Source of the DNA: Oscillospiraceae bacterium | GTDB taxonomy: Bacteria; Bacillota; Clostridia; Oscillospirales; Ruminococcaceae | Length of the DNA: 64,000 nucleotides | NCBI GenBank assembly: GCA_017430465.1 | Contig: JAFRMZ010000276.1 | Span: 3,957 to 67,956 of the forward strand | Reading direction: 5' to 3' | Shown: positions 31,124-50,203 of the stretch, piece by piece | Position numbering within the stretch: position 1 is the first letter of the stretch | Layout: each line of letters starts with the position of its first letter | The notes under the pieces: model-generated | The model's database searches: none | What the model saw: the letters and a program-made list of their open reading frames with translations, nothing else | What the model was told of the DNA's origin: nothing | Program-made: the position numbers and the translations under genes

Positions 31124-32320
31124 ATGAAAAGTTTTTCCTATGTTGCAACTACAACAACTGGTAAACAGGTAAAAGGTACTGTCAATGCGGATGATGTGAA
31201 AGAATTTCAAAAGCAGATGAAAGACAAAGGCTATACTGTTACCAAGTACGAGGAAAAAGAAATCGAAAAGAAAAAGACTATCAAGAACTTCCAGACAAAA
31301 GACTTGGCCTTTAACTGCCGTCAGCTTGCCGCTATGCTGACCTCCGGTCTGACTCTGGTAAAAGCACTTGATATTCTGAGCAAGGAACAACCAACAGAAG
31401 ATGCTAAGGAAGTCTGGCAGGATGTGTACGAAAACGTACAGAAAGGTGAATCGTTCTCCGATGCACTGATGAGATACAGAGGTGTCTTCCCCGACTTCAT
31501 GGTCGCCATGGTTTCCGCCGGCGAACAGTCCGGTTCTCTGGATACTATCATGCAGGACTTGTCAGATTATTATCAGAAACAAAATAAACTGAATAATACT
31601 GTCAAGGGTGCTATGACATATCCTATTGTACTCGGCGTGCTGATGTTGGTTATCATCATCTTCATGTTCGTGTTTATCATGCCGACATTCGCAAACATGT
31701 ACGAAAATCCGGACGATATGCCGGCACTGACAAAGGTCATGATGGGCTTTAGTGACTCTCTTGTGCATCAGTGGTATATCTATGTTGCAGTGATTGCAGG
31801 TGCTGTTTTTGGTGTGACTTACATGATGAAAATACCCTCTACCCGCCTGAAATGGGATAAGCTGATTATTACTATGCCGACTGTCGGCCCTCTGGTAGGT
31901 AAAATCTATACAGCTCGTTTTGCTAATACAATGGCTTCCCTGTATTCTTCCGGTATCTCTATGGTGGACTGCCTGAGACGTTCCGCAGATATTCTCGGCA
32001 ACAGCTATATTTCATTCAAGTTTGAAGACGTTATCAGCGAAGTAAAACAGGGCGAAACACTTTCTTCCTCTATCCAGAGAACAGAAATTTTTGACTCCAT
32101 GTTCTGCTCCATTGTTTACGTTGGTGAAGAAGCCGGTGCGCTGGACTCTATTCTGAAAAAAACCGGTGAATACTATGACGAAGAAGCCGACTCCGCTGTC
32201 AGCCGTCTGGTAGGACTGCTCGAACCGCTGATGATTATCATCATGGGCGTTGCCGTAGGTCTGCTGCTTGCAGCCGTATTCCCGGCACTGTATGGCTCTT
32301 TCGATGCTATCGCAGCTTAA
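31124..32320 (+). CDS. pilC: type IV pilus platform protein (GspF/PilC family)
   Basis: 398 aa. Two T2SSF-type repeats and three TM segments. GGAGGTGG RBS. Confidence 0.9.
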   Translation: MKSFSYVATTTTGKQVKGTVNADDVKEFQKQMKDKGYTVTKYEEKEIEKKKTIKNFQTKDLAFNCRQLAAMLTSGLTLVKALDILSKEQPTEDAKEVWQDVYENVQKGESFSDALMRYRGVFPDFMVAMVSAGEQSGSLDTIMQDLSDYYQKQNKLNNTVKGAMTYPIVLGVLMLVIIIFMFVFIMPTFANMYENPDDMPALTKVMMGFSDSLVHQWYIYVAVIAGAVFGVTYMMKIPSTRLKWDKLIITMPTVGPLVGKIYTARFANTMASLYSSGISMVDCLRRSADILGNSYISFKFEDVISEVKQGETLSSSIQRTEIFDSMFCSIVYVGEEAGALDSILKKTGEYYDEEADSAVSRLVGLLEPLMIIIMGVAVGLLLAAVFPALYGSFDAIAA

Positions 32321-32352
32321 TTTTATCCAAAAACAGAGAGGTGGAAAAGTAA

Positions 32353-34005
32353 ATGCTTTCATTTGATATTACTGATAAGAATATCCGAATTGTTAAAGGT
32401 ACAGAAAGCAGCAACAAAATCAGAATCACTGCTGCTACTGAACTGGAACTCAACGAATCCGTTATTGTTAACGGCCATGTAAATGACATCAACCGTGTCG
32501 CTGGTATGATTAACCGTGCTCTGAAAGATGCCAATATCGCCGACAAGGAAGCCGTTATTTCAATTTCTTCCAACCAGACAGTCTTCAAAGAACTGATGAT
32601 TCCTCCGAATCCGAAGGAATCGGAATTTATGAAGAATGTCCGCTTAGAACTGAAAAATCAGATTAATATTGACGATTCTTATGCCGTGGCCTATGTTGTT
32701 GTCGGTGAGCCGGAAGATGACGAAAACGGCGGTAAAGTACAGAAAATTCTTGCTACTGCCTGCCCGCAGGATGTAATAGACAGCTACAAGAGAATTTTCA
32801 ATAATCTTAATATTCAGTTGAAATCTATCATGATTGGCTGTAACGCTATCACAAAAGTACTGCTTGCAGACGGCAAAAATAAAGCCAAAATGCCCTTGCT
32901 CGCTGTACAGGTGGATGCAAACTTCATCAGCCTGAACCTGTATGAAAACAATACACTGTCATTCTCCCGTTTCGCTTCTATTGACCCGGAAGACTATGAC
33001 CATCCTGATGATTATATCTTTGAAGCTGTTAACGAAAATATCTACCGTATGCTTCAGTTCGCAAGAATCAGAGGCTCGGAAGAAATTAGAAACGTTGTCT
33101 TCTACGGCGATATTGATGCACAGCCCGATTTGTATAAGCGGGTTCAGGAAGAACAGAAATCTAATGATATTGAAATCAGCCGTCTGGAAGCACCAAACCA
33201 GATTCACGGCCATCAGAATCTGAATTTCTCACTGTATGCCAACGCTATCGGCGGTATGTTCAGACGTGACAAGCTGACAGAACATATCAATCTGCTGGAA
33301 ACAGAAGCTATCGGAAGCGGTATTGCAGGAAAAGTTCCGCAGGATGACCACTCTTTCAATATCGTTGCAATCGCCGGTGTCGCTTTTGCTGCCGTGGTTG
33401 TCGGTGTTGCATTTGGTGTGTTGGCTGGTATAGATGCCAACTATAAAAAGCAGACCGCTGACCTCCGTGCAACGATTGATTCTCCGGAAACCGCTGCAAA
33501 GCTTCAGCAATATGATGACTTGCAGGTGATGAAAGAAACCGTCCATAACTATACTGTAAATATCGTCAATGCAAGAGATGCGTATAACTCTCAGCCGATA
33601 ATCAAAGAATCTGTCTATACCGCTGTCGAAGAAGCACTCGAAAATGTGATGTCACAGACAGATTCTACCTCCGAATCTCCGGAATACTCCATTGATTATG
33701 CAGATGGCGTGCTCACTGTTCCTGTTACGATTACTTCTTCCGAAGAATTCGCCCAGAAGTATCCTACTAATCTGGTACAGTATCTCTATGAAACCTATGG
33801 CGAAGAAGCTACTGATGCAGAAAACCGTTTCTTCTCCAGCGTAGAGTATACGGGCTATGATGTAGATATTATAACTGGTGATAACAATCAGCAGACACAA
33901 AAAATTTCTTTTGAACTGGCTCTGACACTGCGTCCTGAACAAGTGCCGGAAATCATTGAAGAAGAGGAAACTGTTGCTGAAGAAACCACTGCGGAAGCAG
34001 AGTAA
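32353..34005 (+). CDS. pilM: PilM-like actin-fold pilus assembly protein fused to a TM segment and an extracytoplasmic PilN-like region
   Basis: 550 aa. PilM-like N-terminal ~320 aa, TM FNIVAIAGVAFAAVVVGVAFGVLAGI, then a ~190-aa acidic extracellular region. Confidence 0.75.
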   Translation: MLSFDITDKNIRIVKGTESSNKIRITAATELELNESVIVNGHVNDINRVAGMINRALKDANIADKEAVISISSNQTVFKELMIPPNPKESEFMKNVRLELKNQINIDDSYAVAYVVVGEPEDDENGGKVQKILATACPQDVIDSYKRIFNNLNIQLKSIMIGCNAITKVLLADGKNKAKMPLLAVQVDANFISLNLYENNTLSFSRFASIDPEDYDHPDDYIFEAVNENIYRMLQFARIRGSEEIRNVVFYGDIDAQPDLYKRVQEEQKSNDIEISRLEAPNQIHGHQNLNFSLYANAIGGMFRRDKLTEHINLLETEAIGSGIAGKVPQDDHSFNIVAIAGVAFAAVVVGVAFGVLAGIDANYKKQTADLRATIDSPETAAKLQQYDDLQVMKETVHNYTVNIVNARDAYNSQPIIKESVYTAVEEALENVMSQTDSTSESPEYSIDYADGVLTVPVTITSSEEFAQKYPTNLVQYLYETYGEEATDAENRFFSSVEYTGYDVDIITGDNNQQTQKISFELALTLRPEQVPEIIEEEETVAEETTAEAE

Positions 34006-34027
34006 TCAAAAAGGAGTGTGATACACC

Positions 34028-34861
34028 ATGATGCGTGAAATGAGTTATAGAGACAAAATGATTCTTCTGATTATCAGTGTGATTATTATTCTGGCTGTCG
34101 GCTTCTTTGCACTGATTCGCCCGAAATATAATTCACTGGTGGCAGACAGAGCTACTTATGAAGAAACTAAGACCGAATGGGAAGGCATTGATGCAAAATT
34201 ACAACAGATTCCCGTCCTCAAAGAAGCTATCACGGCAGAATACAAAGATTCCAGCAAGATTGCTGAAATGTTCGTCAGTGATGTGTTTCAGCCCGTCAAT
34301 GATACATTCGATAACCTGAAGGCAAATTATGTTCTCGAACAATATATCCAAGAGAAAATTGATGAAAGCGAACTGAAAATGAGAAGCCTTGAAATTGGTG
34401 GTATTTCTTCTCAGAATCTGGATTACTACTACTATACCCCTGATGTGCTGACTTATTCTTTGCTGGAAAGTGCCGACGTTAACGGCAATTATGCTCAGCA
34501 GGTAACAGATTTGCTGAAAACTAGCACAACTCTTTCCGAAAGAGAAACCGCAGAAGTAATGACAAATACTCTCACTCTTAACCTGTCCGGCAAGAAAGAA
34601 AGTCTCATGGCCTTCCTCACTAAGATGATTGAAGAAGAAGAAAATGCTGTACGTGTTACCAGCGTTTCTATTGAAGACTATACTTTCGGCGAAGGCCAGA
34701 CACAGACAATTACTGAACAGCAGACAAATCCTGACGGTACTGTTACTGAAGTGACAAGAGAAGTTCCGCTTGCTTCTGATGGTCAGGGTGAATCTGAAAT
34801 GGAAATCAGTATTACATTCTACAATGCAATGCCGATTGACCAGCCTGTTCTCGGCGATTGA
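34028..34861 (+). CDS. PilO-like bitopic pilus assembly protein
   Basis: 277 aa. N-terminal TM (MILLIISVIIILAVGFFALI), coiled-coil and C-terminal domain. The call rests on position and topology. Confidence 0.55.
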   Translation: MMREMSYRDKMILLIISVIIILAVGFFALIRPKYNSLVADRATYEETKTEWEGIDAKLQQIPVLKEAITAEYKDSSKIAEMFVSDVFQPVNDTFDNLKANYVLEQYIQEKIDESELKMRSLEIGGISSQNLDYYYYTPDVLTYSLLESADVNGNYAQQVTDLLKTSTTLSERETAEVMTNTLTLNLSGKKESLMAFLTKMIEEEENAVRVTSVSIEDYTFGEGQTQTITEQQTNPDGTVTEVTREVPLASDGQGESEMEISITFYNAMPIDQPVLGD

Positions 34862-34900
34862 GGAAAGAAATGAGACACTTCATCGTGAAAGGTGGTTAGA

Positions 34901-37534
34901 ATGATGAAGGAGAAAACAACAAACCCGAAACGTGTCAAAGGTACAGTTCTGTTTACAGTTGTTTCTGTCATGATGGTGCTGATTGTCTTCCTGACAGCAA
35001 CACTCGCACTGGCAGTCACCGCCAACAACAGAGCAGTGAATAAACTCACAAAATCTCAGACCCAGCAAACTGCAAAAGCCGCCGTACATTCTATTATGGC
35101 GGCAATGCAGAACGATGCTACGTTTGCTTCTAAAATCAATGATGTAGCGGCAGGTTCGGGCATTACGCTCGGACAGGATGCAATTCAGTTTGATGATGCC
35201 TCTCTTGGCAGAGTGTCTGCGGCATCTATTGAGTATTATGGAAACGAATATGTTCTGGATACAGATAACACATCTGCAACATATAACCAGCTTGTTTCCA
35301 GAGATATTCTCAAGATTTCCGCAACCGCAACACAGGGCAGAGAAAGTTCTACCGTTACTGCCTATGTACTGAAAAAGAAGAATATCGAAACGAATGATGA
35401 CGGTCAGAACAGCGGCTTCGTGGCAACTGGTGCTGCCGGCATGGATAACCACGTTTCTTCATTCGGCGGTACTTATCTGGGATTCAATGAACTTTACAAA
35501 GACCCGACCCAAGTTTCTGATATGAGTTTCTCCGTTGCCAACGGTGAAGCGATTGAAACAGATATGCAGGTAAATGGTAACTTTACTGTTAGCAATGGTA
35601 CTTTAGATTTAGTTGTCAAAAAGCCGGGTACAGGTATGACTGTTTGGGGCAATTTCATTTTAAATAAAGGTATGAATGTAATAACTGTTAATGCAACCCC
35701 TGATTCTCTTGATGGTTTGAGTTATACACAGATTCCTTATGTTTATGTAGAAAAAGAACTGAAACTGAATTTTAGTGATAATGATAAACAATTTGGCACA
35801 CCGGGAGTTCCGCTCAATGTTTTCTGTGGTTATGTAACTACCGGAGATAATGAAAAGAAAATTTCTGCAAATGTCTATTGTTATGATGAAAATCAGACTT
35901 CTAAATTAAATACCCAAACAATTGCAAGTGGTTTATATCACTGGGCTGCTAATGTTCTGGATAGTTCTGCATCTTTAGAATCTGGTAGTTTCTATACTAA
36001 AGGCAGTTTGGAAATTAATGCAGAAGCTAATTTTTCAGGTGATGTTGTTGTAGAAAAAGATTTAACAATTAATGGAAATGTCAATATTTCAGGTGATTTG
36101 AAAGTTGCAGGTTCTATTACAGTAAAGGGTGGTAATCTGAATGTATCCGGCACTATTTATAATGACGGATATGCAGGGGCTTCTCCTCTGTATCCCGGAC
36201 TTACTAGAGTTGATGGACATTATGAATTAAAGGCAGGTTATACACATACGCAAGAGACAGAACGGGTGGAATTGCTTCAGAATACCAATATTCCGAATCC
36301 GTGGAATGCTTCTCAGCAAATGTTTGTAAAGGCAGTTGTTTTCAATCAGGATACTGGTGAGGTACTTTGGTATGAACAAAGTAATGACTGCATACTGACT
36401 TTGGAATCTGATGGTCAGGTATATGGACAATATAACTGGGGAAAATGGGTTGTTTATACACCCGGAACTTACGATGTATATAAAGATGCTTCTGGTAATG
36501 TAGTGGCTGAGTCAGAAGCAAATGACTGGATTCCCACACAGTATTATGATGCATCAGGCAATCCTGTAACTGTAGCTTCTTTATTCCCTGAGGAATATGA
36601 AAAAGATGTCATTCTTGGTCAAACACTGCTGGATGGAAAATCTAAATCTGAAACACAGATTGTCAAGACCGTTCAGGAAGTTCTGAGCAATACTAGCAGT
36701 AACCCCTATAGTGCTCCGAATTCTGTTCCGGATGAACATCAGGAAAGAGTTACTAAAAACGTTATCAGCATTAATGGAACTGGAAATTCAAACAATGGTT
36801 CTTATACTGTCGCATCTGGCGGCGATGCTACTATTATTACACAAGTACCCGGTGAATCCGGCAGCTTTACTATCACAGATTCCTGCACGCTTTCTGGTTC
36901 TTCCTTCAAGCAGGACCTGATTCTGAAAGCAAAAACAGGTGAAGAAATCTGGGTTGTCATGAATGGCTTTACATTTAGCAATGCCGGCGGTCAGCTGATT
37001 GTTGATGATACAGATTCCAATTATCAGGGTAAAGTCAACGTGCTCCTGACCGGAGACCTCAAGTTCTCCAGTAACGGACAGTATCCGATTGTTACTAAGA
37101 AAATGGAACAGCTGTTAAGTTCTACTGAAGCGTTTAGCATTGACAATGGTGTGCTCAGAGACAGCGCAGGCAATAAAATCAGCGAAGTCAATCCGATTAA
37201 ACTGAATATTTATTCTGATGGTGCACATACTCTGCACTTGAATGAAAGTGGTACAATGTGTGCTAACATCAGAGCACCATATTTGACAGTAGAAATTGCT
37301 TCCGGCGGTGGTGCAGCCGCAACTAATTCCGCAATCTATTACAATGGCTTCAATACACAGGCTGATGAAAATTCAAAGAATTTAGGATGCATTGGCTGCT
37401 GTATCGTAAAAGATTTTAAGTCTACCAATAACTGGGTACTCCTGTATGTTGGTAAAAAAGGCGCAACCGGCGGCGATGAATTCAAAGACGCTTTGATGAA
37501 TAACTGGAGCGTCCGCTATTACGAAAACTATTGA
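34901..37534 (+). CDS. giant PilX_N-like pilus-associated protein (candidate tip or adhesin subunit)
   Basis: ATG 34901 lies 5 nt after GGTGG. The N-terminus KRVKGTVLFTVVSVMMVLIVFLTATLALAV is pilin-like but lacks Glu+5. Beta-helix-like repeats GNFTVSNGTLDLVV and SGDVVVEKDLTINGNVNISGDLKVAGSITVKGGNLNVSG. Confidence 0.75.
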   Translation: MMKEKTTNPKRVKGTVLFTVVSVMMVLIVFLTATLALAVTANNRAVNKLTKSQTQQTAKAAVHSIMAAMQNDATFASKINDVAAGSGITLGQDAIQFDDASLGRVSAASIEYYGNEYVLDTDNTSATYNQLVSRDILKISATATQGRESSTVTAYVLKKKNIETNDDGQNSGFVATGAAGMDNHVSSFGGTYLGFNELYKDPTQVSDMSFSVANGEAIETDMQVNGNFTVSNGTLDLVVKKPGTGMTVWGNFILNKGMNVITVNATPDSLDGLSYTQIPYVYVEKELKLNFSDNDKQFGTPGVPLNVFCGYVTTGDNEKKISANVYCYDENQTSKLNTQTIASGLYHWAANVLDSSASLESGSFYTKGSLEINAEANFSGDVVVEKDLTINGNVNISGDLKVAGSITVKGGNLNVSGTIYNDGYAGASPLYPGLTRVDGHYELKAGYTHTQETERVELLQNTNIPNPWNASQQMFVKAVVFNQDTGEVLWYEQSNDCILTLESDGQVYGQYNWGKWVVYTPGTYDVYKDASGNVVAESEANDWIPTQYYDASGNPVTVASLFPEEYEKDVILGQTLLDGKSKSETQIVKTVQEVLSNTSSNPYSAPNSVPDEHQERVTKNVISINGTGNSNNGSYTVASGGDATIITQVPGESGSFTITDSCTLSGSSFKQDLILKAKTGEEIWVVMNGFTFSNAGGQLIVDDTDSNYQGKVNVLLTGDLKFSSNGQYPIVTKKMEQLLSSTEAFSIDNGVLRDSAGNKISEVNPIKLNIYSDGAHTLHLNESGTMCANIRAPYLTVEIASGGGAAATNSAIYYNGFNTQADENSKNLGCIGCCIVKDFKSTNNWVLLYVGKKGATGGDEFKDALMNNWSVRYYENY

Positions 37535-37550
37535 TAAGGAGGTCTGCTGA

Positions 37551-37970
37551 ATGAAAATTTTCAAAAAGCCCCGCAAACTGAAAGGCATGACTCTGGTAGA
37601 GATAATTATTGCATTGTTTGTGTTTGTGGTTGCTTCTGCCCTCATGGTGAAAATAGGTTCAGTCGCTTCCACTTTGCTGAAAAATTCCAGCCATGTCGAA
37701 AAAAGAACTTCTATTGAAACCCCGCTTGCCGAAAACGGCAATACTGCTTCCGACTTTGTAGAAAATGACAATCTGAAAGTAGTTGTTAAAATTCCCGGTT
37801 CTACTGTAAACGTCAGAGGCAAAAGCTATACAACTGCCAAGCAGGTAGTCGGAAATGAGTTTGCAGATTCTTTCATCACCAATGCAGATATTGAATATGT
37901 GGAATTTGACCTGACACAAAAAGGCGGCGGCGGTATTTGGGAAGAACCAAGCGAAACCGAAACCACGTAA
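37551..37970 (+). CDS. minor pilin (prepilin-type N-terminal cleavage/methylation domain)
   Basis: 139 aa. KLKG/MTLVEIIIALFVFVVAS with Glu+5. AAGGAGG RBS. Confidence 0.85.
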   Translation: MKIFKKPRKLKGMTLVEIIIALFVFVVASALMVKIGSVASTLLKNSSHVEKRTSIETPLAENGNTASDFVENDNLKVVVKIPGSTVNVRGKSYTTAKQVVGNEFADSFITNADIEYVEFDLTQKGGGGIWEEPSETETT

Positions 37971-37985
37971 CAGAGGTGTGCGGAA

Positions 37986-39038
37986 ATGAAGAAACAAAAT
38001 AGAGTAAAAGGTTTTACGTTGATTGAATTAATCATCGTAATGGCAATATTCGGGGTAATTATGTTCGGTGCATTGCAGTTGTTAACTCCTGTCGGAAATA
38101 TTTTCCAGAAGTCCTATAAAACAGAAACAATTTCTGCTGCCGCACAGAATATCGGAAATTATCTTGAAGATGCCCTCCGCTATGCAGATGCCGTGCAGAT
38201 TACACCCGATGATATTGTAAAAGCAGACGGTGAAATTGATACTGCGGCATTCAACAGCATTATGGCCAGCAGAGATGGTAATATTTATCAGAAATCTGCT
38301 ACATCCGGTGACATGACCTACGAATCCGGAGATATTTATGTTCTGGAAATCGACAATACCGCAGGCGGAACTATCAGACGCTGGCAGTATGATTATGTTG
38401 TCGGTGACAATACCTGTCCTGATGCTACCCAGCATAAAACAGCAACCATCAATGACAATGCCAGCTATGATACAGGCGAATATGTTGTCAATCGGGCGCA
38501 TTATACTGATTATCATTATAATATTTCACTTGGTATTTTTGCACTGGATAATAACAGCACAAGCGCAACTTATCAGCAGCTTGTCAAGGATGACGGCTAT
38601 TACAGCAGCTTTACAGATACCACACTCCAGATGTTCGGACGTGATAATTTTGGTCTGACAATTACTGCATTTCCCTATACGCTGAACAGTGACGGCACTG
38701 TAAAGGAAAATGCTCAGAATGGTACACTTGGAAGCTGTACTTATGACACAGCTTATCTTTATACTGCAAGTGTTGGTTTCACAAACCTGAAAAAAACATC
38801 TACAGTCCATAAGTACAACTGGATTGACCATGATAAAGACGGCAATACAGTAGCATGGCATGTGCCCACTGATGATGAATTCACTGCAGATAAAACAAAC
38901 AATTACAAGTATATCGAATCTGAACAAACAAAACTGTTTAACTGGTCCGGTGCACTGAGCACAGATATGCATGAACTGAAAGAAATTCCGAAGTTCTATA
39001 TTATCTATACTTATCCGGGCAGTAATATTGTCAAGTAA
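37986..39038 (+). CDS. large minor pilin (prepilin-type N-terminus)
   Basis: 350 aa. RVKG/FTLIELIIVMAIFGVIMFGAL with Glu+5. Confidence 0.85.
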   Translation: MKKQNRVKGFTLIELIIVMAIFGVIMFGALQLLTPVGNIFQKSYKTETISAAAQNIGNYLEDALRYADAVQITPDDIVKADGEIDTAAFNSIMASRDGNIYQKSATSGDMTYESGDIYVLEIDNTAGGTIRRWQYDYVVGDNTCPDATQHKTATINDNASYDTGEYVVNRAHYTDYHYNISLGIFALDNNSTSATYQQLVKDDGYYSSFTDTTLQMFGRDNFGLTITAFPYTLNSDGTVKENAQNGTLGSCTYDTAYLYTASVGFTNLKKTSTVHKYNWIDHDKDGNTVAWHVPTDDEFTADKTNNYKYIESEQTKLFNWSGALSTDMHELKEIPKFYIIYTYPGSNIVK

Positions 39039-39052
39039 GCAAACAAAAATAT

Positions 39053-39090
39053 CGGCAGTCGGAAGATTGCTCTCCGGCTGCCGGTTTTTT
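39053..39090. terminator. terminator between the pilin operon and convergent pilD
   Basis: Imperfect stem cggcagtcgg / ccggctgccg followed by TTTTTT. Confidence 0.6.
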
Positions 39091-39098
39091 GAATTTGT

Positions 39099-39989
39099 TC
39101 AGGCAAATGCCTGAGTCGGGTCATAAGTAATCCAAGCGACATAAGCATCAAGAAGCTGTTCTCCGAATAGTGTACCAAGAAATAAGCCTATCGCCAGATA
39201 AGGCCCGAATGCGAATTTTGACTCTCCGCCACGTTTTTTCAGGATTGCACCGCAGACAGCGGCAATGCAGATTCCGAAAAATGCAGAAATTACCGTAGCT
39301 TTCCAGCCAATCAGCAAACCGCCGGCCGCCATCAGAATGGTGTCACCGAGCTCAATAGCACGAAAACGTTCATTAAATTTTTTTTCAATAATCGGTATGC
39401 TGATTTCTCCAATCAGGAAAAACGGCAGTCCGATACAGACGAGCCCTATCAGATGCGAAGAAAGCGGAAGATTTCCCGCTGTCAGAAATTCCGGCAGATT
39501 CCAGAAAGTCGCTTCCGAAGATAACCGGATAACAGAAAGTACAATATCCGGAACAGCAAGCAGGGCGATGAAAAACAAAATTCTCAAATCCATTTCCTGC
39601 GTATCCCAGTCAATAAAGGCGATGCAAATCAGCGCAGAAAAGAAAAAGCAATACAGAATAGTCTGCAAACTGAAATCCAGTACAGTAAAAGCAGTCAGAT
39701 AAACAATACAGTTCAGAGATTCTACAATCGGATAGCGTTTCGAGATAGGTTCACCGCAGCTCCGGCATTTGCCTTTGAGCATAAGCCAGCCAAGCACCGG
39801 AATGTTATCCCGCCAGAGAATCGGCGTTCCGCATGTCATACAGTGCGAAGAACGCTTGACAAGTGATTCGTCCTTCGGCAGACGAAAAATCACCACGTTC
39901 AGAAAACTGCCGATACATAACCCATAGAAAGATGCGATGAGGTAAAACATAATGTAAAACGGCCAATCCATAAATTCATTGTGAAGCAT
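39099..39989 (-). CDS. pilD: prepilin peptidase / N-methyltransferase (A24 family)
   Basis: Start at ATG 39989 (MLHNEFMDWPF) behind GGAGGA. GLCIGSFLNVVIFRLP, CMTCG...CRSCG, FIDWDTQEMD and GDTILMAAGG motifs. The longer ORF-track N-terminus is rejected. Confidence 0.9.
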   Translation of the reverse strand: MLHNEFMDWPFYIMFYLIASFYGLCIGSFLNVVIFRLPKDESLVKRSSHCMTCGTPILWRDNIPVLGWLMLKGKCRSCGEPISKRYPIVESLNCIVYLTAFTVLDFSLQTILYCFFFSALICIAFIDWDTQEMDLRILFFIALLAVPDIVLSVIRLSSEATFWNLPEFLTAGNLPLSSHLIGLVCIGLPFFLIGEISIPIIEKKFNERFRAIELGDTILMAAGGLLIGWKATVISAFFGICIAAVCGAILKKRGGESKFAFGPYLAIGLFLGTLFGEQLLDAYVAWITYDPTQAFA

Positions 39990-40083
39990 TGTGTATGTCC
40001 TCCTTAAAAAATCGATAATATATATATTATAGCATAGACCGACAATTTTTACAAGCGTAAAGTGAAATTTGAAAGGAGAAAAG

Positions 40084-40554
40084 ATGAAAAATTTTAATAC
40101 AGCCGATTTTCTGACAGAACAGCATCTCATCACTTCGGAACAGCGTGTAAAAATTCTTTCTGAACTTGAAAAGCCTGAACATGCCGGAATGTTTTTTCTG
40201 GAATGTGCGGTCAGTCTGGGATTTGTTCCGGAAATCGAGACTATCAAGAAAATTTCTGCTGAATTGAAAATTCCTTATCTTAATCTGAAAAATCTTGATA
40301 TTGATGAGGATGCTGTAAAACTGATTCCGGAAGAAACAGTAAGAAACTATCATCTTCTTGCAATATTGAAATCTGATAAGCTGGGACTTGTCGTGGTGAC
40401 ATCCAATCCGGACGTTCTGCCGTTTTTGGATACCATCAGAATACAGACAGGATTTTCAGTTTATCCCTGCTTTACTCATATTACCTGTATGCAGTGGGCT
40501 TTGGATGAAGTATATCTCCGGAATATGCAGTATTTTAAACCTGTGTATTCCTGA
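40084..40554 (+). CDS. stand-alone T2SSE_N/MshEN-type domain protein, paralogue of the PilB N-terminus
   Basis: 156 aa from ATG 40084 (AAAGGAG RBS). It aligns along its length with PilB residues 1 to ~150, e.g. LKIPYLNLKNLDIDEDAVKLIPEE versus LRVPYVDLGNIDIDEDAVRRIPES. No ATPase domain. Confidence 0.8.
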   Translation: MKNFNTADFLTEQHLITSEQRVKILSELEKPEHAGMFFLECAVSLGFVPEIETIKKISAELKIPYLNLKNLDIDEDAVKLIPEETVRNYHLLAILKSDKLGLVVVTSNPDVLPFLDTIRIQTGFSVYPCFTHITCMQWALDEVYLRNMQYFKPVYS

Positions 40555-40626
40555 TGAGTAAAACTGCTTTAGTTTAAAATGACATATTTTTTTAACATAA
40601 AATCAAATTGATGGAGGTAATTTTTC

Positions 40627-42306
40627 ATGAGAAACATTCGTATCGGTGATTATCTTGTAGAACAAAAGTTAATCACACAAGAACAACTGATGGAAGTGCT
40701 CGCTAAGCAGAAAGAACCGGAAAATACCGGAAAGCGTTTCGGCGAAATGGTAGTCGAATTAGGCTTTATTTCTGAAATCAGCCTTTCCAAAGCTCTGGCC
40801 GCAAAACTGCGTGTTCCCTATGTGGATTTGGGCAATATTGATATTGATGAAGATGCTGTCCGCCGTATTCCGGAATCTCTGGCAAGAAAATATACTGTTA
40901 TTGCCATCAGCATTCAGGGACGCAGACTGACAGTCGCAACCGATGACCCAATTAACTTCAATATTCTGGAAGACATCAAGATGCAGACCGGTATGGATAC
41001 GATTCCGGTACTGGCAACCAAATCAGCTATCAATAAAGCTATCGGCAATATGTATTCCATGGAGAATGTCGATGACGTTCTTGCAAGTGTAAACCAGTTT
41101 AGAGATGATGAGGAAGAAGACGATTCCAAGGACAGAATCGAAAGCGCACCTATTGTAAAGCTGGCAACTACTATCGTGGAAAACTCTTTCCGTGCAGATG
41201 CTACAGATATTCATATCGAACCGTTCAAGACATATACCAGAATCCGAATCCGTGTTAACGGCGACCTTGTAGAACTGATGAACGTATCCAATGTAGTGCA
41301 TAACGCTCTGACAACCCGTCTGAAACTGATTTCCGGCATGAACATCGCCGAAAAGCGTGTTCCGCAGGACGGCCGTTTCACACAGGTCGTTGACGGTACA
41401 ACCCTTGACGTCCGTGTATCTTCTCTGCCTATGGTACACGGTGAAAAAATAGTTATCCGAATTCTTTCCACCGGTAACATTGCCCTGAGAAAGATTACTG
41501 ACCTCGGTATGTCGGATTATAACTATCAGTTGTTTGAATCTATGATTAAATGCCCTCACGGAGTTATTCTGGTAACAGGGCCTACCGGTTCTGGTAAGAC
41601 CACTACTCTGTATGCCGCACTTGGCGAACTCGCAAAGCCGAATGTAAACGTAATCACCGTAGAAGACCCTGTAGAAAAAGCCATTGATGGTATCAATCAG
41701 GTACAGGTAAATTCCAAAACAGGTATGACGTTCGCTGCTGCGCTTCGTTCTATCCTCCGTCAGGACCCTGACATCGTTATGATTGGTGAGATGCGTGACT
41801 CGGAAACTGCCGACATCGGTATCCGTGCCGCTATTACCGGACACTTGGTGCTTTCTACCTTGCATACCAATGATGCGGCTTCTACTATTGTCCGTCTGAT
41901 TGATATGGGCGTTGCTTCCTACATGGTTGCGACTTCTCTTATTGGCGTTATCGCCCAGCGTCTTGTTAAGGTACTCTGTCCGAAGTGCAAAACCCAGCGT
42001 TTCTCTGATGAAGATGAAAACAAGCTTATGAAACTGGATGATATTTACACTCCCATCCCTGTATTTGAAGCGCAGGGTTGTCCGGAATGCAATAATACAG
42101 GCTACAGAGGACGTACTGCAATTCATGAAATCATTCACTGTACTGCCGGTATTTCTACCATCATCGCAAGAAACGGAAGCAAAGAAGAAATCGAAGAAAA
42201 AGCCAAGGAAAATGGCACAAAACTGCTCCGTGACAACGTATCTGAACTGGTTCAGAAAGGCGTTACTTCTATGGATGAGCTGGTTCGTGTTACTTACGCT
42301 GTATAA
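40627..42306 (+). CDS. pilB: type IV pilus assembly ATPase (GspE/PilB family)
   Basis: 559 aa. MshEN-type N-domain, Walker A GPTGSGKTTT, Asp and His boxes, and tetracysteine CPKC...CPEC. Confidence 0.92.
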   Translation: MRNIRIGDYLVEQKLITQEQLMEVLAKQKEPENTGKRFGEMVVELGFISEISLSKALAAKLRVPYVDLGNIDIDEDAVRRIPESLARKYTVIAISIQGRRLTVATDDPINFNILEDIKMQTGMDTIPVLATKSAINKAIGNMYSMENVDDVLASVNQFRDDEEEDDSKDRIESAPIVKLATTIVENSFRADATDIHIEPFKTYTRIRIRVNGDLVELMNVSNVVHNALTTRLKLISGMNIAEKRVPQDGRFTQVVDGTTLDVRVSSLPMVHGEKIVIRILSTGNIALRKITDLGMSDYNYQLFESMIKCPHGVILVTGPTGSGKTTTLYAALGELAKPNVNVITVEDPVEKAIDGINQVQVNSKTGMTFAAALRSILRQDPDIVMIGEMRDSETADIGIRAAITGHLVLSTLHTNDAASTIVRLIDMGVASYMVATSLIGVIAQRLVKVLCPKCKTQRFSDEDENKLMKLDDIYTPIPVFEAQGCPECNNTGYRGRTAIHEIIHCTAGISTIIARNGSKEEIEEKAKENGTKLLRDNVSELVQKGVTSMDELVRVTYAV

Positions 42307-42353
42307 TATTTATATTATCATAAAAAATTATCAAGTTTGGAGGAATCTGAAAC

Positions 42354-43424
42354 ATGGCAATTGAAATTAACAGAATACTGAACGAAGTCCGTGCTATCGG
42401 CTGTTCTGACTTGCATTTTACTTACGGAATGCCCCCTGTAGTCCGTCTGCATGGTGCGCTCAGGAGAATATCTAAATATCCGGAACTCGATGACGAAGAA
42501 ACAATGTCCATCGTTAACCAGATGACAAATGATGCCCAGATGGCAAAAGTCCGCAGACATGAAGACACTGACTTTTCATTCCAGACAACTGCCGGCTATC
42601 GTCACCGTGTTAATGTGTATTTTCAGAGAGGCCATGCGGCAATCGCTATCCGTCTTCTGAGAAATGACATTCCGACTTTGGATGACCTCGATTTACCGCC
42701 TGTTCTGGCCGATTTTGCAATGCGTCCCCGTGGCCTGATACTGGTAACAGGCCCTACCGGTTCGGGTAAATCTACCACACTGGCCGGCATGATTGACTAT
42801 ATCAATGTTCACAGAAGTGCACATGTCATCACGGTTGAAGACCCTATCGAATATGTACACTCCAACAAGCTTTGCATGATTAATCAGAGAGAAGTTGGCG
42901 ATGACGTTCCGGACTTCGCAATGGCACTGCGTGCCGCCCTCCGTGAAGACCCTGATGTTATTCTTGTCGGAGAAATGCGTGACTTTGAAACTATCAGTGC
43001 GGCTATCACTGCGGCTGAAACCGGACATCTTGTGCTTTCTACCCTGCATACCACCTCTGCGGCCGATACGATTAACCGTATTATTGATACCTATCCGGAA
43101 CATCAGCAGAATCAGATTCGTACCCAGCTCGCCGGAAACATGGTCGGCGTTGTCTCTCAGACACTGCTTCCGACTCTGGACGGCAAGGGCCGTACAGCCT
43201 GCATGGAAATTCTGAACGTAACAGATGCCTGCGCCGCTATGATTCGTGATGATAAAACACATTTGCTGTTATCGGCAATTCAGTCCGGTAAACAGTTCGG
43301 TATGATGTGCCTTGACCAGGAACTTGCACGTCTGGTGAAAAGAGGTATTGTCGGCGAAAGTGCCGCCCTCGAAAAATGCCAGAGTAAGGCTGAATTCTAC
43401 AGATTCCTGAACGGTACAAACTAA
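42354..43424 (+). CDS. pilT: twitching-motility / pilus retraction ATPase
   Basis: 356 aa. GPTGSGKSTT, ITVEDPIEY, VGEMRD and HLVLSTLHT motifs. No N-terminal GspE domain. Confidence 0.9.
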   Translation: MAIEINRILNEVRAIGCSDLHFTYGMPPVVRLHGALRRISKYPELDDEETMSIVNQMTNDAQMAKVRRHEDTDFSFQTTAGYRHRVNVYFQRGHAAIAIRLLRNDIPTLDDLDLPPVLADFAMRPRGLILVTGPTGSGKSTTLAGMIDYINVHRSAHVITVEDPIEYVHSNKLCMINQREVGDDVPDFAMALRAALREDPDVILVGEMRDFETISAAITAAETGHLVLSTLHTTSAADTINRIIDTYPEHQQNQIRTQLAGNMVGVVSQTLLPTLDGKGRTACMEILNVTDACAAMIRDDKTHLLLSAIQSGKQFGMMCLDQELARLVKRGIVGESAALEKCQSKAEFYRFLNGTN

Positions 43425-47554: not shown

Positions 47555-48886
47555 CTATACTTTTTGTTCTGGTATTCTGTAAGTAAGCCCAAGTATGCAG
47601 AAAAACAATGGCGCAGTATAGAACATGGTATTCCCAAAAAAAGCAGAAACACAATAGCCAAATACTGTAACAAGTGCGGCAGTAGTATATCCGTCAAGAC
47701 AGGATTTTCGTTTCAGTGCCCTCAAAAACAGGCTCAGAATTCCGGCGATATAGCAGATTCCCGCTGGAATTCCATAAAATGCCATATATTGCAGGTATTC
47801 GTTATGTGTTCTAGTATTTTTAGCAGATTCTGTAAGAAAATCAGCAATGCCTTCTGTACCACTTCCAAGCAGAGGCTTTTCTTGGATTTTCTGTATTGTA
47901 TATTTCCAAAGTCTCCAGCGGCCGCTACCGGCTTTGCTAGCATCTTCATTTTTTTCAGCAATATTTTGAATATCTCTGAATAGTAAATAAAAATCACTCA
48001 AAACAGTATCAAAAAAGAAAGCTGCTGTCAGATTGACAGCGATATATCCCACCCAAAGCAGAACGGCTTTTTTATTGATTTGTTTCTGCATAATAAATAG
48101 CATGATAATCTGAAATATCAAAGCGAACAAACAAGCTAGAAAAGAACCGAAAGTAAGGTTTATCGCCAACATGAAAGTATTCAGCAAAAATGAAATCCAG
48201 TAAAATAAAGTCCATCCTCTTTTTTTTTCCCATACAGCCAGTCCGGCACTTGCCATAATCAGCATGGTTAAATAGTAACCATAGTGATTCGGATTTAAGA
48301 AAACAGCATTTATATAGTAATCAGGATAGTGGATTAATGGTTCTATCGTGAAAGCATAGTGATGAAGCAGTGTAGCAATGCCTATTAGCATTCCACTGAA
48401 CAAAAATGCTCGAAACAGAATCTTTTTCAGTTCAGATGTTCTGATGACTGTACCGCAGAAGAAAAATACAAGAATGTATCTCATAAAAGAAGATGATGTC
48501 TCCTCTCTCCAGATAACGCCATGTAATGCATATTCTGACCAGCCGTTGACAGAATCAGAAAGAAATATCAGTGCCGCAAGCGTTCCCAGAAACAGTATTG
48601 GCAGATATTCATGAAGTTTTCTCTTTTTTGATTCAACCGAAATTTTTCCCAGACAAAGCAGGTATACTACAAGTGCTAATACAGTTGCAATCAACGTTAC
48701 ATCTAAGATAATAAAAGAATACATCCACATAGTAAAGAAATTAATCAGCAGATATAACAATGGGGTTATCAGCGTAAGAAAAATTGGAATAAATGCAAGA
48801 AATTCAATTTCCTGCCATGTGAGTAGAGTCAAGATTTCTTTCAGCGTTTTGGCAGACTGATATTTTTTAAGAAATGCTAATTTCAT
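47555..48886 (-). CDS. O-antigen ligase / Wzy_C family polytopic membrane protein (candidate pilin O-oligosaccharyltransferase)
   Basis: 443 aa with about 10-12 TM helices. Periplasmic-loop motif GSGRWRLWKYTIQKIQEKPLLGSGTEG...RTHNEYLQYMAFYGIPAG. The ATG lies 6 nt after the pilin stop. Confidence 0.8.
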   Translation of the reverse strand: MKLAFLKKYQSAKTLKEILTLLTWQEIEFLAFIPIFLTLITPLLYLLINFFTMWMYSFIILDVTLIATVLALVVYLLCLGKISVESKKRKLHEYLPILFLGTLAALIFLSDSVNGWSEYALHGVIWREETSSSFMRYILVFFFCGTVIRTSELKKILFRAFLFSGMLIGIATLLHHYAFTIEPLIHYPDYYINAVFLNPNHYGYYLTMLIMASAGLAVWEKKRGWTLFYWISFLLNTFMLAINLTFGSFLACLFALIFQIIMLFIMQKQINKKAVLLWVGYIAVNLTAAFFFDTVLSDFYLLFRDIQNIAEKNEDASKAGSGRWRLWKYTIQKIQEKPLLGSGTEGIADFLTESAKNTRTHNEYLQYMAFYGIPAGICYIAGILSLFLRALKRKSCLDGYTTAALVTVFGYCVSAFFGNTMFYTAPLFFCILGLTYRIPEQKV

Positions 48887-48892
48887 GAATGG

Positions 48893-49402
48893 TTATTCTC
48901 CCTTTTCTGCCCAGTCGAGAACATCAACAGCAGAAGAAAATGCGGAATTTTTAGCATATCCGTCAGAAGTTTCTTCTGATTCGGTGTTATGAGGAAATGC
49001 GCCGTAATAACCCTTTGTGTTGACAGCAGTCCCTAACACTGCTTTTGCACTGACACGATAAGCGGCCGCATCAAGGTCTTCTACGCCTTTGAAATATTTA
49101 CGAATTTTTGCGGCCATAGCCTGTTCTGCTGTAGGAGAACTGCCTTCGCCGGCATCTGCTTTTTCTTTTGTCCACTGAAAATCTGTTACGGCGGAAGTGA
49201 GCACAATTCCTTCAGTATCCAGTTCAGTCAGTGAGGTGACAGCGGCATTAGAAAGTGATTTTGCGTTGGAATTGGCAGTAGAAACCTGAGCTTTCTTGAC
49301 ATATCCGAGCATGGACGGCACAAGAAGCCCTGCCAGTACACCAATAATTGCAATCACAACAATCAGTTCTACCAGTGTAAAGCCGTGTAAATTTTTTTTC
49401 AT
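48893..49402 (-). CDS. type IV pilin (PilA-like), paralogue 1
   Basis: Start at ATG 49402. MKKNLHG/FTLVELIVVIAIIGVLAGLLVPSMLGYVKKA with Glu+5. 169 aa. Confidence 0.9.
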   Translation of the reverse strand: MKKNLHGFTLVELIVVIAIIGVLAGLLVPSMLGYVKKAQVSTANSNAKSLSNAAVTSLTELDTEGIVLTSAVTDFQWTKEKADAGEGSSPTAEQAMAAKIRKYFKGVEDLDAAAYRVSAKAVLGTAVNTKGYYGAFPHNTESEETSDGYAKNSAFSSAVDVLDWAEKGE

Positions 49403-49463
49403 AAAAAATCCCTTCTTTCTTTTTTTGAAAATTTTTAAAAGCAGATTCATACTTATTTCATAT

Positions 49464-49492
49464 ATTATAGCATAATCAGCAACATTTGTCAA
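49464..49492 (-). promoter_or_regulatory. near-consensus sigma-A promoter of pilin paralogue 1
   Basis: Minus strand reads TTGACA (49492..49487), 17 nt, TATAAT (49469..49464), with TGC 5' of the -10 box. Confidence 0.55.
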
Positions 49493-49629
49493 GGGATGAG
49501 TGCATTTTTTCGCTATATTTAAACGTTTTCGGAAAAATATTATTCTGCTGGCATATAAAGTGTTTTTCAGCCACAACTAAAGACGGGTATCTATAGTATT
49601 TTTTGGCAGTTTATTAAATGTTTTAAGAT

Positions 49630-49662
49630 AAAAAACAGCCCCTCCCAAAAGGAAGGGGCTGT
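49630..49662 (-). terminator. strong rho-independent terminator after pilin paralogue 2
   Basis: Minus strand reads acagcccct...aggggctgt hairpin followed by TTTTTTAT. Confidence 0.8.
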
Positions 49663-49705
49663 TGCATTTCAGATTAAATCTGTAGTGTTACTTTGTGCTA
49701 TTTGC

Positions 49706-50203
49706 TTAAGAAGTAACCGTGAGAGCACCAGTAGTACCATCAATGGAAGCACTACCGCCGTTCTGAACAGCTTCCGGATAAGCACCCATGTAATTGCCCT
49801 TTTTGCAGATAGCGGCTGTGCAGGCATTCTTTACAATACCAAGTTCAACGTCTGTCAGACCCTTCAGTGTGGATTCACCAACAGCCTGTTTGAAAGAATC
49901 AACAAATGTAGTAGTAGCATCACTGCAGGAAGGTGTGCCAGCAGCAGCAACAGCAATTGTAAGCTTGCCTGTAACCTTGTTCGCCGCACTGAATACCGTA
50001 GCACCAGCAGTATCGCAGTCTGTAACAGCAGTAGCAGCAGCGTTGTAGATGGTCTTAGCGTTGGAGTTAACAGCAGACTGGTTAGCCTTCTTTACATAAC
50101 CCAGCATGGACGGTACGAGGATTGCAGCGAGTACACCGATGATTGCGATAACTACGATAAGTTCTACCAGTGTAAAGCCCTTGACGTTCTTTCTTGTTTT
50201 CAT
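49706..50203 (-). CDS. type IV pilin, Ala/Thr-rich (probable major pilin)
   Basis: 165 aa. MKTRKNVKG/FTLVELIVVIAIIGVLAAILVPSMLGYVKKA. GGAGGT RBS, own promoter and strong terminator. Confidence 0.9.
   Translation of the reverse strand: MKTRKNVKGFTLVELIVVIAIIGVLAAILVPSMLGYVKKANQSAVNSNAKTIYNAAATAVTDCDTAGATVFSAANKVTGKLTIAVAAAGTPSCSDATTTFVDSFKQAVGESTLKGLTDVELGIVKNACTAAICKKGNYMGAYPEAVQNGGSASIDGTTGALTVTS

Follow-up and report, generated by a model that had tools for sequence, protein, structure and literature searches.

Between pilD and pilB of a type IV pilus cluster, the window (the whole stretch of 64,000 nucleotides that was analysed) carries a small gene whose product is a stand-alone paralogue of the N-terminal MshEN/GSPII domain of the assembly ATPase PilB. 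The reading that we prefer, and hold tentatively, is that this protein is an accessory, trans-encoded extra GSPII domain which modulates the docking or the function of PilB without c-di-GMP.

The small gene and its locus

The small gene begins with an ATG at 40084 and ends with a TGA at 40552-40554 (Table 1). Of its ribosome binding site, GGAG is kept in the related locus L001, and the corresponding sequence in L002 is AGGGG. In a BLASTP comparison, the small protein and PilB (residues 1 to about 144) have 56/144 identities (39%, E 3e-33). Residues 61-145 of the small protein match the Pfam family MshEN (PF05157) with 37.8 bits against a cutoff of 23.1, which places the protein in that family, and the C-terminal end lies 11 residues past this domain. 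Pfam gave no match to the T2SSE ATPase domain (PF00437) in the small protein, and it is thus not an ATPase of the PilB/GspE type. The original prediction, made from the sequence of the window, had described a stand-alone duplicate of the PilB N-domain that lacks the ATPase domain. Both parts of this description hold, the peptide strings that it quoted were all found, and the HMM scoring that it had suggested puts PilB (77.2 bits) as well as the small protein above the MshEN cutoff.

It should be noted that the copy in the window differs from those of L001 and L002 by a deletion of 23 bp, which is flanked by short CCTGT(G/T) repeats. The 156-aa and 166-aa forms of the protein were each found in 3 of 6 cluster members, and the undeleted 23 nt are present in both of the two metatranscriptome contigs of the small gene. 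An assembly artefact or a chance ORF was ruled out, since many independent assemblies, and RNA contigs too, contain the gene.

The type IV pilus cluster around the small gene is complete and of the Gram-positive kind. The cluster genes at 31124-39038 have an identical order in L003, L006 and L008, and pilT is followed by polA, rimI and tsaD. The PilD start, MLHNEF, is conserved, and a promoter-like site for pilD was found on the minus strand at 40054-40026. In loci without the small gene the pilD-pilB gap is 92-200 bp, with the AT-rich and TTTACAAG elements directly before pilB. Since these elements precede the small gene here, the small gene lies between the pilB promoter region and pilB. A scan for terminator-like sites between the small gene and pilB returned none. 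Judging from this arrangement, the small gene is probably the first gene of a pilB-pilT operon.

The small gene was also found in two rumen metatranscriptome assemblies. An RNA contig of 526 nt covers 40370-40872, from the 3' end of the small gene through the 5' end of pilB, and another of 280 nt covers 40353-40609. These contigs are unstranded and assembled and may contain DNA, and therefore they support transcription of the small gene short of proof.

Read-through or a frameshift fusion with pilB was considered and rejected: despite the common frame of the two genes in the window, in-frame TAG, TGA and TAA codons lie in the spacer. In the 166-aa alleles the frame differs from that of pilB. 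The covalent fusion seen in PilF of Thermus is likewise not what is found, as there are two separate ORFs with in-frame stops and an RBS each. The pairing of a degenerate extra GSPII domain with a c-di-GMP-competent one, as in PilF, does have a counterpart here in the small protein and the PilB N-domain, encoded in one putative operon.

Table 1. Features of the pilus locus, in coordinates of the window
Feature	Coordinates	Strand	Basis and remarks
pilC	31124-32320	+	Pfam T2SSF
pilM(N)	32353-34005	+	Pfam PilM_2
pilO-like gene	34028-34861	+	Pfam T2SSM (weak)
Gene for 880-aa protein	34892-37534	+	
Two minor pilins	37551-37970 and 37986-39038	+	N_methyl
pilD, prepilin peptidase	39099-39989	-	A24_N_bact and Peptidase_A24; divergent from the small gene
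Divergent pilD/small-gene control region	39990-40083		TTTACAAG and AT-rich elements; intergenic comparison with L015-L017, L020 and L023
Shine-Dalgarno of the small gene	40074-40078	+	AGGAG, read from the sequence; 5 nt before the ATG
Small gene	40084-40554	+	156 aa; stand-alone MshEN/GSPII paralogue of the PilB N-domain, allele type A
Motif I remnant	40096-40167	+	residues 5-28, NTADFLTEQHLITSEQRVKILSEL; Arg, Leu and Gly gone; 5/11 relaxed positions
Motif II remnant	40192-40263	+	residues 37-60, FFLECAVSLGFVPEIETIKKISAE; Phe for Arg and Leu for Gly; at most 7/11 relaxed positions
MshEN_C alpha/beta subdomain	40264-40518	+	residues 61-145; PF05157 match and AlphaFold2 secondary structure
Junction of the 23-bp deletion relative to L001/L002	40545-40546	+	DNA alignment; tail changed from 166 to 156 aa, PVIFSEPVVYIPDE to PVYS
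Spacer, small gene to pilB	40555-40626	+	72 nt; GGAGG for pilB at 40613-40617
pilB, assembly ATPase	40627-42306	+	559 aa; T2SSE 430.7 bits, MshEN 77.2 bits; intact motifs at residues 5-28 and 37-60
pilT, retraction ATPase	42354-43424	+	T2SSE 170 bits

The 880-aa protein and the two minor pilins (34892-39038) are 27-47% identical between the window, L001, L003, L006 and L008, genomes in which PilB, PilT and PilD are 75-99% identical; this stretch thus has the character of a hypervariable pilus-tip/minor-pilin cassette in a conserved machine. PilB and PilT (40627-43424) are exceptionally conserved. At 47555-50203 on the minus strand, a gene for a Wzy_C/O-antigen-ligase-like membrane protein (47555-48886) adjoins two pilin genes, which suggests pilin glycosylation of a TfpO/PglL-like kind. 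At this position L003 has a PIN/MazE toxin-antitoxin pair, one pilin and an integrase.

c-di-GMP motifs and predicted fold

The canonical tandem 24-residue motif is RLGxx(L/V/I)(L/V/I)xxG(L/V/I)(L/V/I)xxxxLxxxLxxQ, and Wang et al. (2016; PMC5013675) gave a relaxed form for database mining, [RKPN]hGxxhhxx[GAS]hhxxxxhxxxhxx[QNKRYWST], with 11 specified positions. Scored against the relaxed form, PilB has 10/11 and 11/11 positions in motifs I and II and the small protein 5/11 and 7/11; the latter thus lacks the two motifs of a c-di-GMP-binding MshEN receptor. In the alignment of the two proteins, R-I-G of PilB motif I corresponds to N-T-A in the small protein, and R-F-G of motif II to F-F-L. The NCBIfam model NF053729 ('c-di-GMP_motif', cutoff 38) matches PilB on residues 5-59 with 56.9 bits, and it found no match on the small protein, even at E values up to 10. 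The claim that the motifs of the paralogue are degenerate, with Arg and Gly replaced in both copies, is borne out by these scores. The companion claim, that PilB has two good copies, agrees with its motif scores and with NF053729, but the motifs are spaced by 8 residues where the canonical spacing is 5, and motif I has Lys at its position 10.

Loss of a motif Arg or Gly was found in 9/10 stand-alone allele types, whereas R/K-I-G and R-F-G are kept in 31/31 PilBs of the clade. Motif II, which begins K-R-F-G in PilB, has become MFFL in the small protein of the window, KSFL in L003 and KCFC in L006 and L007. It is KHFG in the second L007 copy, KSFG in P0164, KHFD in P0165 and P0177, KRFS in P0006 and KRFG in L008. 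The Arg of motif I is also gone in three types (the second L007 copy, P0164 and P0165), and the L008 allele keeps both Arg-x-Gly triplets. NF053729 still gives 40-58 bits in 7/10 allele types, and fails only for allele B (19.2 bits) and for allele A, the type in the window.

The description of the small protein as ligand-blind is therefore consistent with the motif loss of allele A but does not carry over to the whole family, in which most types pass NF053729 and the L008 allele has both triplets. Judged by sequence, erosion of the motif appears to be a family trait and universal ligand-blindness does not, and we infer that c-di-GMP binding was probably lost by the small protein in the lineage of the window. 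In XpsE, which does not bind the ligand, the listed changes include R38G and G40L (PMC5013675), and the third-position Gly is important in GSPII-A of PilF (PMC12002112). It should be noted that prediction of binding from the motif is imperfect in both directions, and a motif match alone is not decisive (PMC12002112).

An AlphaFold2 model of the small protein, obtained from a 29-sequence alignment, has a pLDDT of 88.4 and a pTM of 0.79, with disorder only in the last 9 residues. The predicted structure has the two-subdomain fold, with helices at residues 6-12, 18-28, 38-44 and 50-61 followed by an alpha/beta subdomain. A Foldseek search of the PDB matched MshE with c-di-GMP (5htl, E 2e-8), and the best TM-score was to the NMR structure of Thermus PilF GSPII-A (9g1w, TMq 0.75, rmsd 2.5). 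Further matches were to PilF GSPII-B, the X. citri PilB-N/PilZ complex and XpsE-N, with 8pdk and 2d28 among them. Because of the predicted fold and these matches, we regard the small protein as a whole MshEN/GSPII domain and not a fragment. Positions that are invariant among the alleles lie mostly in the hydrophobic core, and a comparison of four alleles revealed core residues only and no conserved PilB-like surface patch. The identity of allele A to PilB is evenly distributed and low (35-43%).

Distribution and divergence of the small gene

The nearest genome records to the window are Ruminococcus sp. MAGs, and the sequence was also found in rumen and gut metagenomes. A word-indexed search with the small protein returned just copies that are 90-97% identical, and with P0003 it returned almost nothing; homologues came to light only when 1.84 billion representatives were searched exhaustively with HMMER and when the PilB N-domain was used as the query. 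HMMER identified one close family representative, P0003 (158 aa, 53% identity). It otherwise matched proteins of PilB type or with several MshEN domains, and short sequences that consist of MshEN only, a part of them fragments.

A survey of pilus loci, of the kind that the original prediction had called for, found a stand-alone gene at the identical position, between pilD(-) and pilB(+), in at least 10 related Ruminococcus/Oscillospiraceae loci (L001-L014). The encoded proteins have 166 aa in L001, L002 and L013, 158 aa in L003-L005 and L014, 150 aa in L010 and L011, 147 aa in L012, and 146 aa in L006 and L007; those of L008 and L009 have 213 aa. The L008 protein (P0095, 7001-7642) has a 13-residue N-terminal and a ~55-residue C-terminal extension; the PilB of this genome and that of the window are 99.5% identical. 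In L007 (5241-6172), two tandem stand-alone MshEN genes follow pilD, the second of them P0177-like and cut by the contig end; the copy number of the free N-domain therefore varies among strains.

The small gene is absent in L015-L017, where PilB is 95.6-98.6% identical to that of the window and 190-200 bp separate pilD from pilB. About 20 more distant loci of equal cluster type (PilB 77-90% identical) lack it as well, as does R. flavefaciens 007C, where the gap is 138 bp (PMC3672088, Table S6). The gene is thus clade-restricted and accessory. Since the pilus cluster is complete in the close relatives that lack it, the gene is dispensable for piliation. In L017 (2801-3000), about 100 nt of the 200-bp pilD-pilB spacer have no counterpart in the ancestral-type spacers of 92-96 bp; this extra sequence may be the deletion scar of a former small gene.

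Between genomes in which PilB is at least 98.9% identical and its N-domain 99-100% identical, the small proteins share 27-53% identity, and PilM(N) is 80% identical where the small protein falls to these values. For the window compared with L003 and L008, respectively, identities are 99.1 and 99.5% for PilB, 96 and 99% for PilT, 89 and 95% for PilD, 83 and 91% for PolA, and 51 and 27% for the small protein; those of the minor pilins are 28-43%. The first 150 residues of PilB are 100% identical between the window and L003, and PilT is 96-99% identical across relatives. Omega is 0.15-0.6 for the small gene, 0.00-0.08 for the PilB N-domain, and 0.003-0.017 for the whole of pilB (at dS 0.5-0.7); the small-gene value is 10-50 times that of the PilB N-domain. 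Alleles A and B are separated by a dS of about 2 and a dN of 0.41 (pN 0.32 vs pS 0.70), and the ORFs of the small gene are unbroken over this saturated synonymous divergence, with omega about 0.2-0.4. From these omega values, selection on the small gene is weak but clearly purifying.

The window, L001, L002 and L003 are approximately equidistant when pilB and pilD are compared (dS 0.5-0.9). For the small gene, in contrast, a dS of 0.08-0.15 separates the window, L001 and L002, and L003 is at a dS of about 2. A tract at ~39750-40620, which takes in the 5' end of pilD, the control region and the small gene, has 93-100% identity to L001 and 85-100% to L002. Outside the tract, identity is 71-88% in pilD and 81-95% in pilB, and nearly all of the differences there are synonymous. 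This tract, and a small-gene tree that is out of step with its flanks, suggest that deep alleles move by recombination, and allele A looks like a recent recombination import into diverged backgrounds. A riboswitch or other RNA element was rejected as the cause of the low synonymous divergence, with no credible Rfam match in 38900-41000; the recombination tract is the better account.

When each small gene was compared with the 5' end of its own pilB, the nucleotide identity was 52% in the window, 60% in L003, 67% in L008 and 80-85% in L006, L010 and L012. In these last three loci, the dS between the paralogues is lower than that between their own PilBs and the PilBs of other lineages, and the copies have therefore been repeatedly born, or partly re-converted, from pilB. 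One ancient duplication followed by a clean small-gene clade is unsupported by the NJ tree and by the paralogue dS.

Possible roles of the small protein

According to our tentative reading, the small gene would have arisen from pilB by partial tandem duplication of its 5' end and would now head the pilB-pilT operon. Its product would be a cytoplasmic, free-standing GSPII/MshEN domain that keeps the two-subdomain fold and, in this lineage, has lost the residues for c-di-GMP binding. It would act through protein-protein contacts as a dispensable modulator of the PilB motor and so play in trans the part that has been proposed in cis for the non-binding GSPII-A 'landing pad' of Thermus PilF. The small protein may take sites on PilM or the platform, or may join the tier of PilB N-domains; the consequence would be to set how readily the c-di-GMP-responsive PilB engages the PilM/PilC platform or other factors. 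Its binding partner and the direction of its effect, as a brake or as an adaptor, are likewise what we infer.

Homology, a model with the full MshEN fold, motif loss and operon position argue for an accessory module. So do the pilD(-)/small gene/pilB order kept in L001-L014, purifying selection with a preserved core, the loss of Arg or Gly in nearly all stand-alone types and in 0/31 clade PilBs, and the recent spread of allele A, at a dS far below the 0.5-0.7 of the flanking pilB. The N1D is also thought to contact the stator or platform (PMC11656802). However, the divergence of the small protein beside a conserved PilB and PilM(N) is hard to square with a fixed interface, and the absence of the gene from close relatives with the whole pilus cluster and its high omega relative to the PilB N-domain also count against such a module. 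The imperfect motif-based prediction of binding (PMC12002112) and the nature of the RNA contigs weigh on the same side.

Among known systems, GSPII-A of PilF (9g1w; PMC12002112, PMC11731258) is likewise an extra MshEN/GSPII domain tied to a T4P assembly ATPase, and is alike in fold. It is an extra domain at the N-terminus, its motif II is degenerate, and twitching motility falls when it is deleted, with ATPase activity and DNA uptake unaffected (PMC11731258, PMC12002112). GSPII-A has been proposed to serve partner proteins as a rigid landing pad, and PilF's N-terminal half binds PilM (PMC11731258, PMC12002112). In these papers the triple-GSPII arrangement is reported from the Deinococcus-Thermus phylum only (PMC12002112, PMC11731258). 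GSPII-A is fused in cis, with one per ATPase subunit, whereas the small protein is a separate product with free stoichiometry. The small protein is also optional, hypervariable and from a Gram-positive Ruminococcus, and its failure to bind c-di-GMP is a prediction from its sequence.

Other MshEN proteins resemble the small protein in part. The MshE N-domain of V. cholerae (5htl; PMC5013675) shares the PF05157 family and the succession of a four-helix and an alpha/beta subdomain, but MshE and those PilBs that bind c-di-GMP (C. perfringens PilB2, M. xanthus PilB) differ from the small protein with its eroded motifs and missing ATPase domain. The N-domain of Xanthomonas XpsE/GspE (2d27/2d28) has Arg and Gly changed at the matching two positions; it is a natural MshEN fold without c-di-GMP binding (PMC5013675), and its role is docking to a platform protein. 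Unlike the small protein, which is separate and lies beside an intact paralogue, this domain is within a full T2SS ATPase. L041 (201 aa) and P0046 (155 aa) are single-domain MshEN proteins without an ATPase domain, but they keep canonical motifs and are not close paralogues of a neighbouring PilB. The L041 gene (1591-2196) lies beside a PEP carboxykinase gene, with no pilus gene linked on its contig. PilZ, FimX and the phage proteins Tip, Aqs1 and Zip (PMC11656802, PMC8389850) are small cytoplasmic tuners of PilB, as the small protein may be. PilZ binds the PilB N-domain, and 7lkm-7lko are among the Foldseek matches through their PilB-N chain. In contrast to all of these, which have no homology to it, the small protein copies its target's own domain.

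A pure competitor seems unlikely to us. Here the free N-domain would take the docking site of PilB on PilM/PilC, or would cap the PilB N-domains, and would be a c-di-GMP-insensitive brake on extension. Overproduced N-terminal fragments of T2SS ATPases are dominant-negative, which speaks for competition; in the literature searched, no dominant-negative work on the XcpR N-domain was found. The small gene would also be expressed together with pilB from the pilB operon, and MshEN_C, whose counterpart docks T2SS ATPases to GspL (PMC12002112, PMC11656802), is retained and confidently predicted. A strict competitor is expected to keep its interface and the small protein does not: the alleles have no PilB-like surface patch in common, their identity to PilB is low and even, and they diverge where the PilB N-domain is nearly invariant. 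A brake made together with its target from one operon would, moreover, be an odd design. Simple competition is thus plausible but not favoured over an adaptor.

It is likewise improbable, in our judgement, that the small gene is a decaying by-product of partial pilB duplication which has no function and is transcribed owing to its position between promoter and pilB. Such decay would fit the presence/absence polymorphism among close relatives, the omega of 0.15-0.6, where the PilB N-domain has 0.08 at most, the lost ligand motifs, the 23-bp deletion that cuts the tail in the window, and the recurrent duplication or conversion by which copies arise easily. However, every copy seen is an intact ORF, across no fewer than 14 loci and 10 allele types, with the RBS kept in the aligned loci, and at saturated dS omega stays clearly under 1. 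The protein retains its core and its fold is confidently predicted, allele A has spread over diverged backgrounds, and the Arg/Gly changes appear targeted in young copies that are otherwise ~78% PilB-like.

Very doubtful is a decoy driven by conflict, that is, a PilB N-domain mimic under diversifying selection that intercepts a variable antagonist such as a phage or competitor protein: variability on a par with the pilins beside a near-invariant target, presence/absence polymorphism, recombining deep alleles, repeated birth from the target gene and the existence of phage proteins that target PilB (PMC11656802) count for it, but omega is below 1 in all comparisons, no antagonist is known in Ruminococcus, and the phage inhibitor Tip maps to N2D of PilB, not N1D (PMC11656802). 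Searches of PHROG and PADLOC with four allele types matched no families, which also led us to reject a phage or defence origin of the small gene.

We attach a low probability to the broader possibility that the pilD-pilB junction of this Ruminococcus clade is a cradle for copies of the motor's own regulatory domain, which would arise there again and again, lose c-di-GMP binding, diversify and pass from strain to strain. If this were true, the copies would mimic their target, be hypervariable and take part in a genetic conflict over the pilus motor, for instance by intercepting phage or competitor antagonists of PilB or by giving strain-specific control of piliation.

MshEN domains as such are known, as are degenerate, non-binding ones (XpsE, PilF GSPII-A) and single-domain proteins (L041, P0046). 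In the literature searched, we found no description of a stand-alone PilB N-domain paralogue heading the pilB operon, or of the optional, hypervariable and recurrent nature of such a paralogue, in agreement with the expectation of the original prediction that the arrangement was new.

Even if the small gene were neutral debris, the locus would still be a clear case of recurrent partial gene duplication at the start of an operon. The N1D/GSPII domain is the least understood part of the pilus motor (PMC11656802). Here it is found naturally as a separate, dispensable protein, with alleles that range from motif-intact to fully degenerate beside an invariant PilB, which makes the locus a ready-made genetic tool. 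The variety of alleles could show the partners of the domain and whether c-di-GMP sensing is separable from docking. Type IV pili have been implicated in the cellulose adhesion of fibre-degrading rumen ruminococci (PMC3672088), and thus a strain-variable modulator of the pilus motor could contribute to differences in adhesion among strains.
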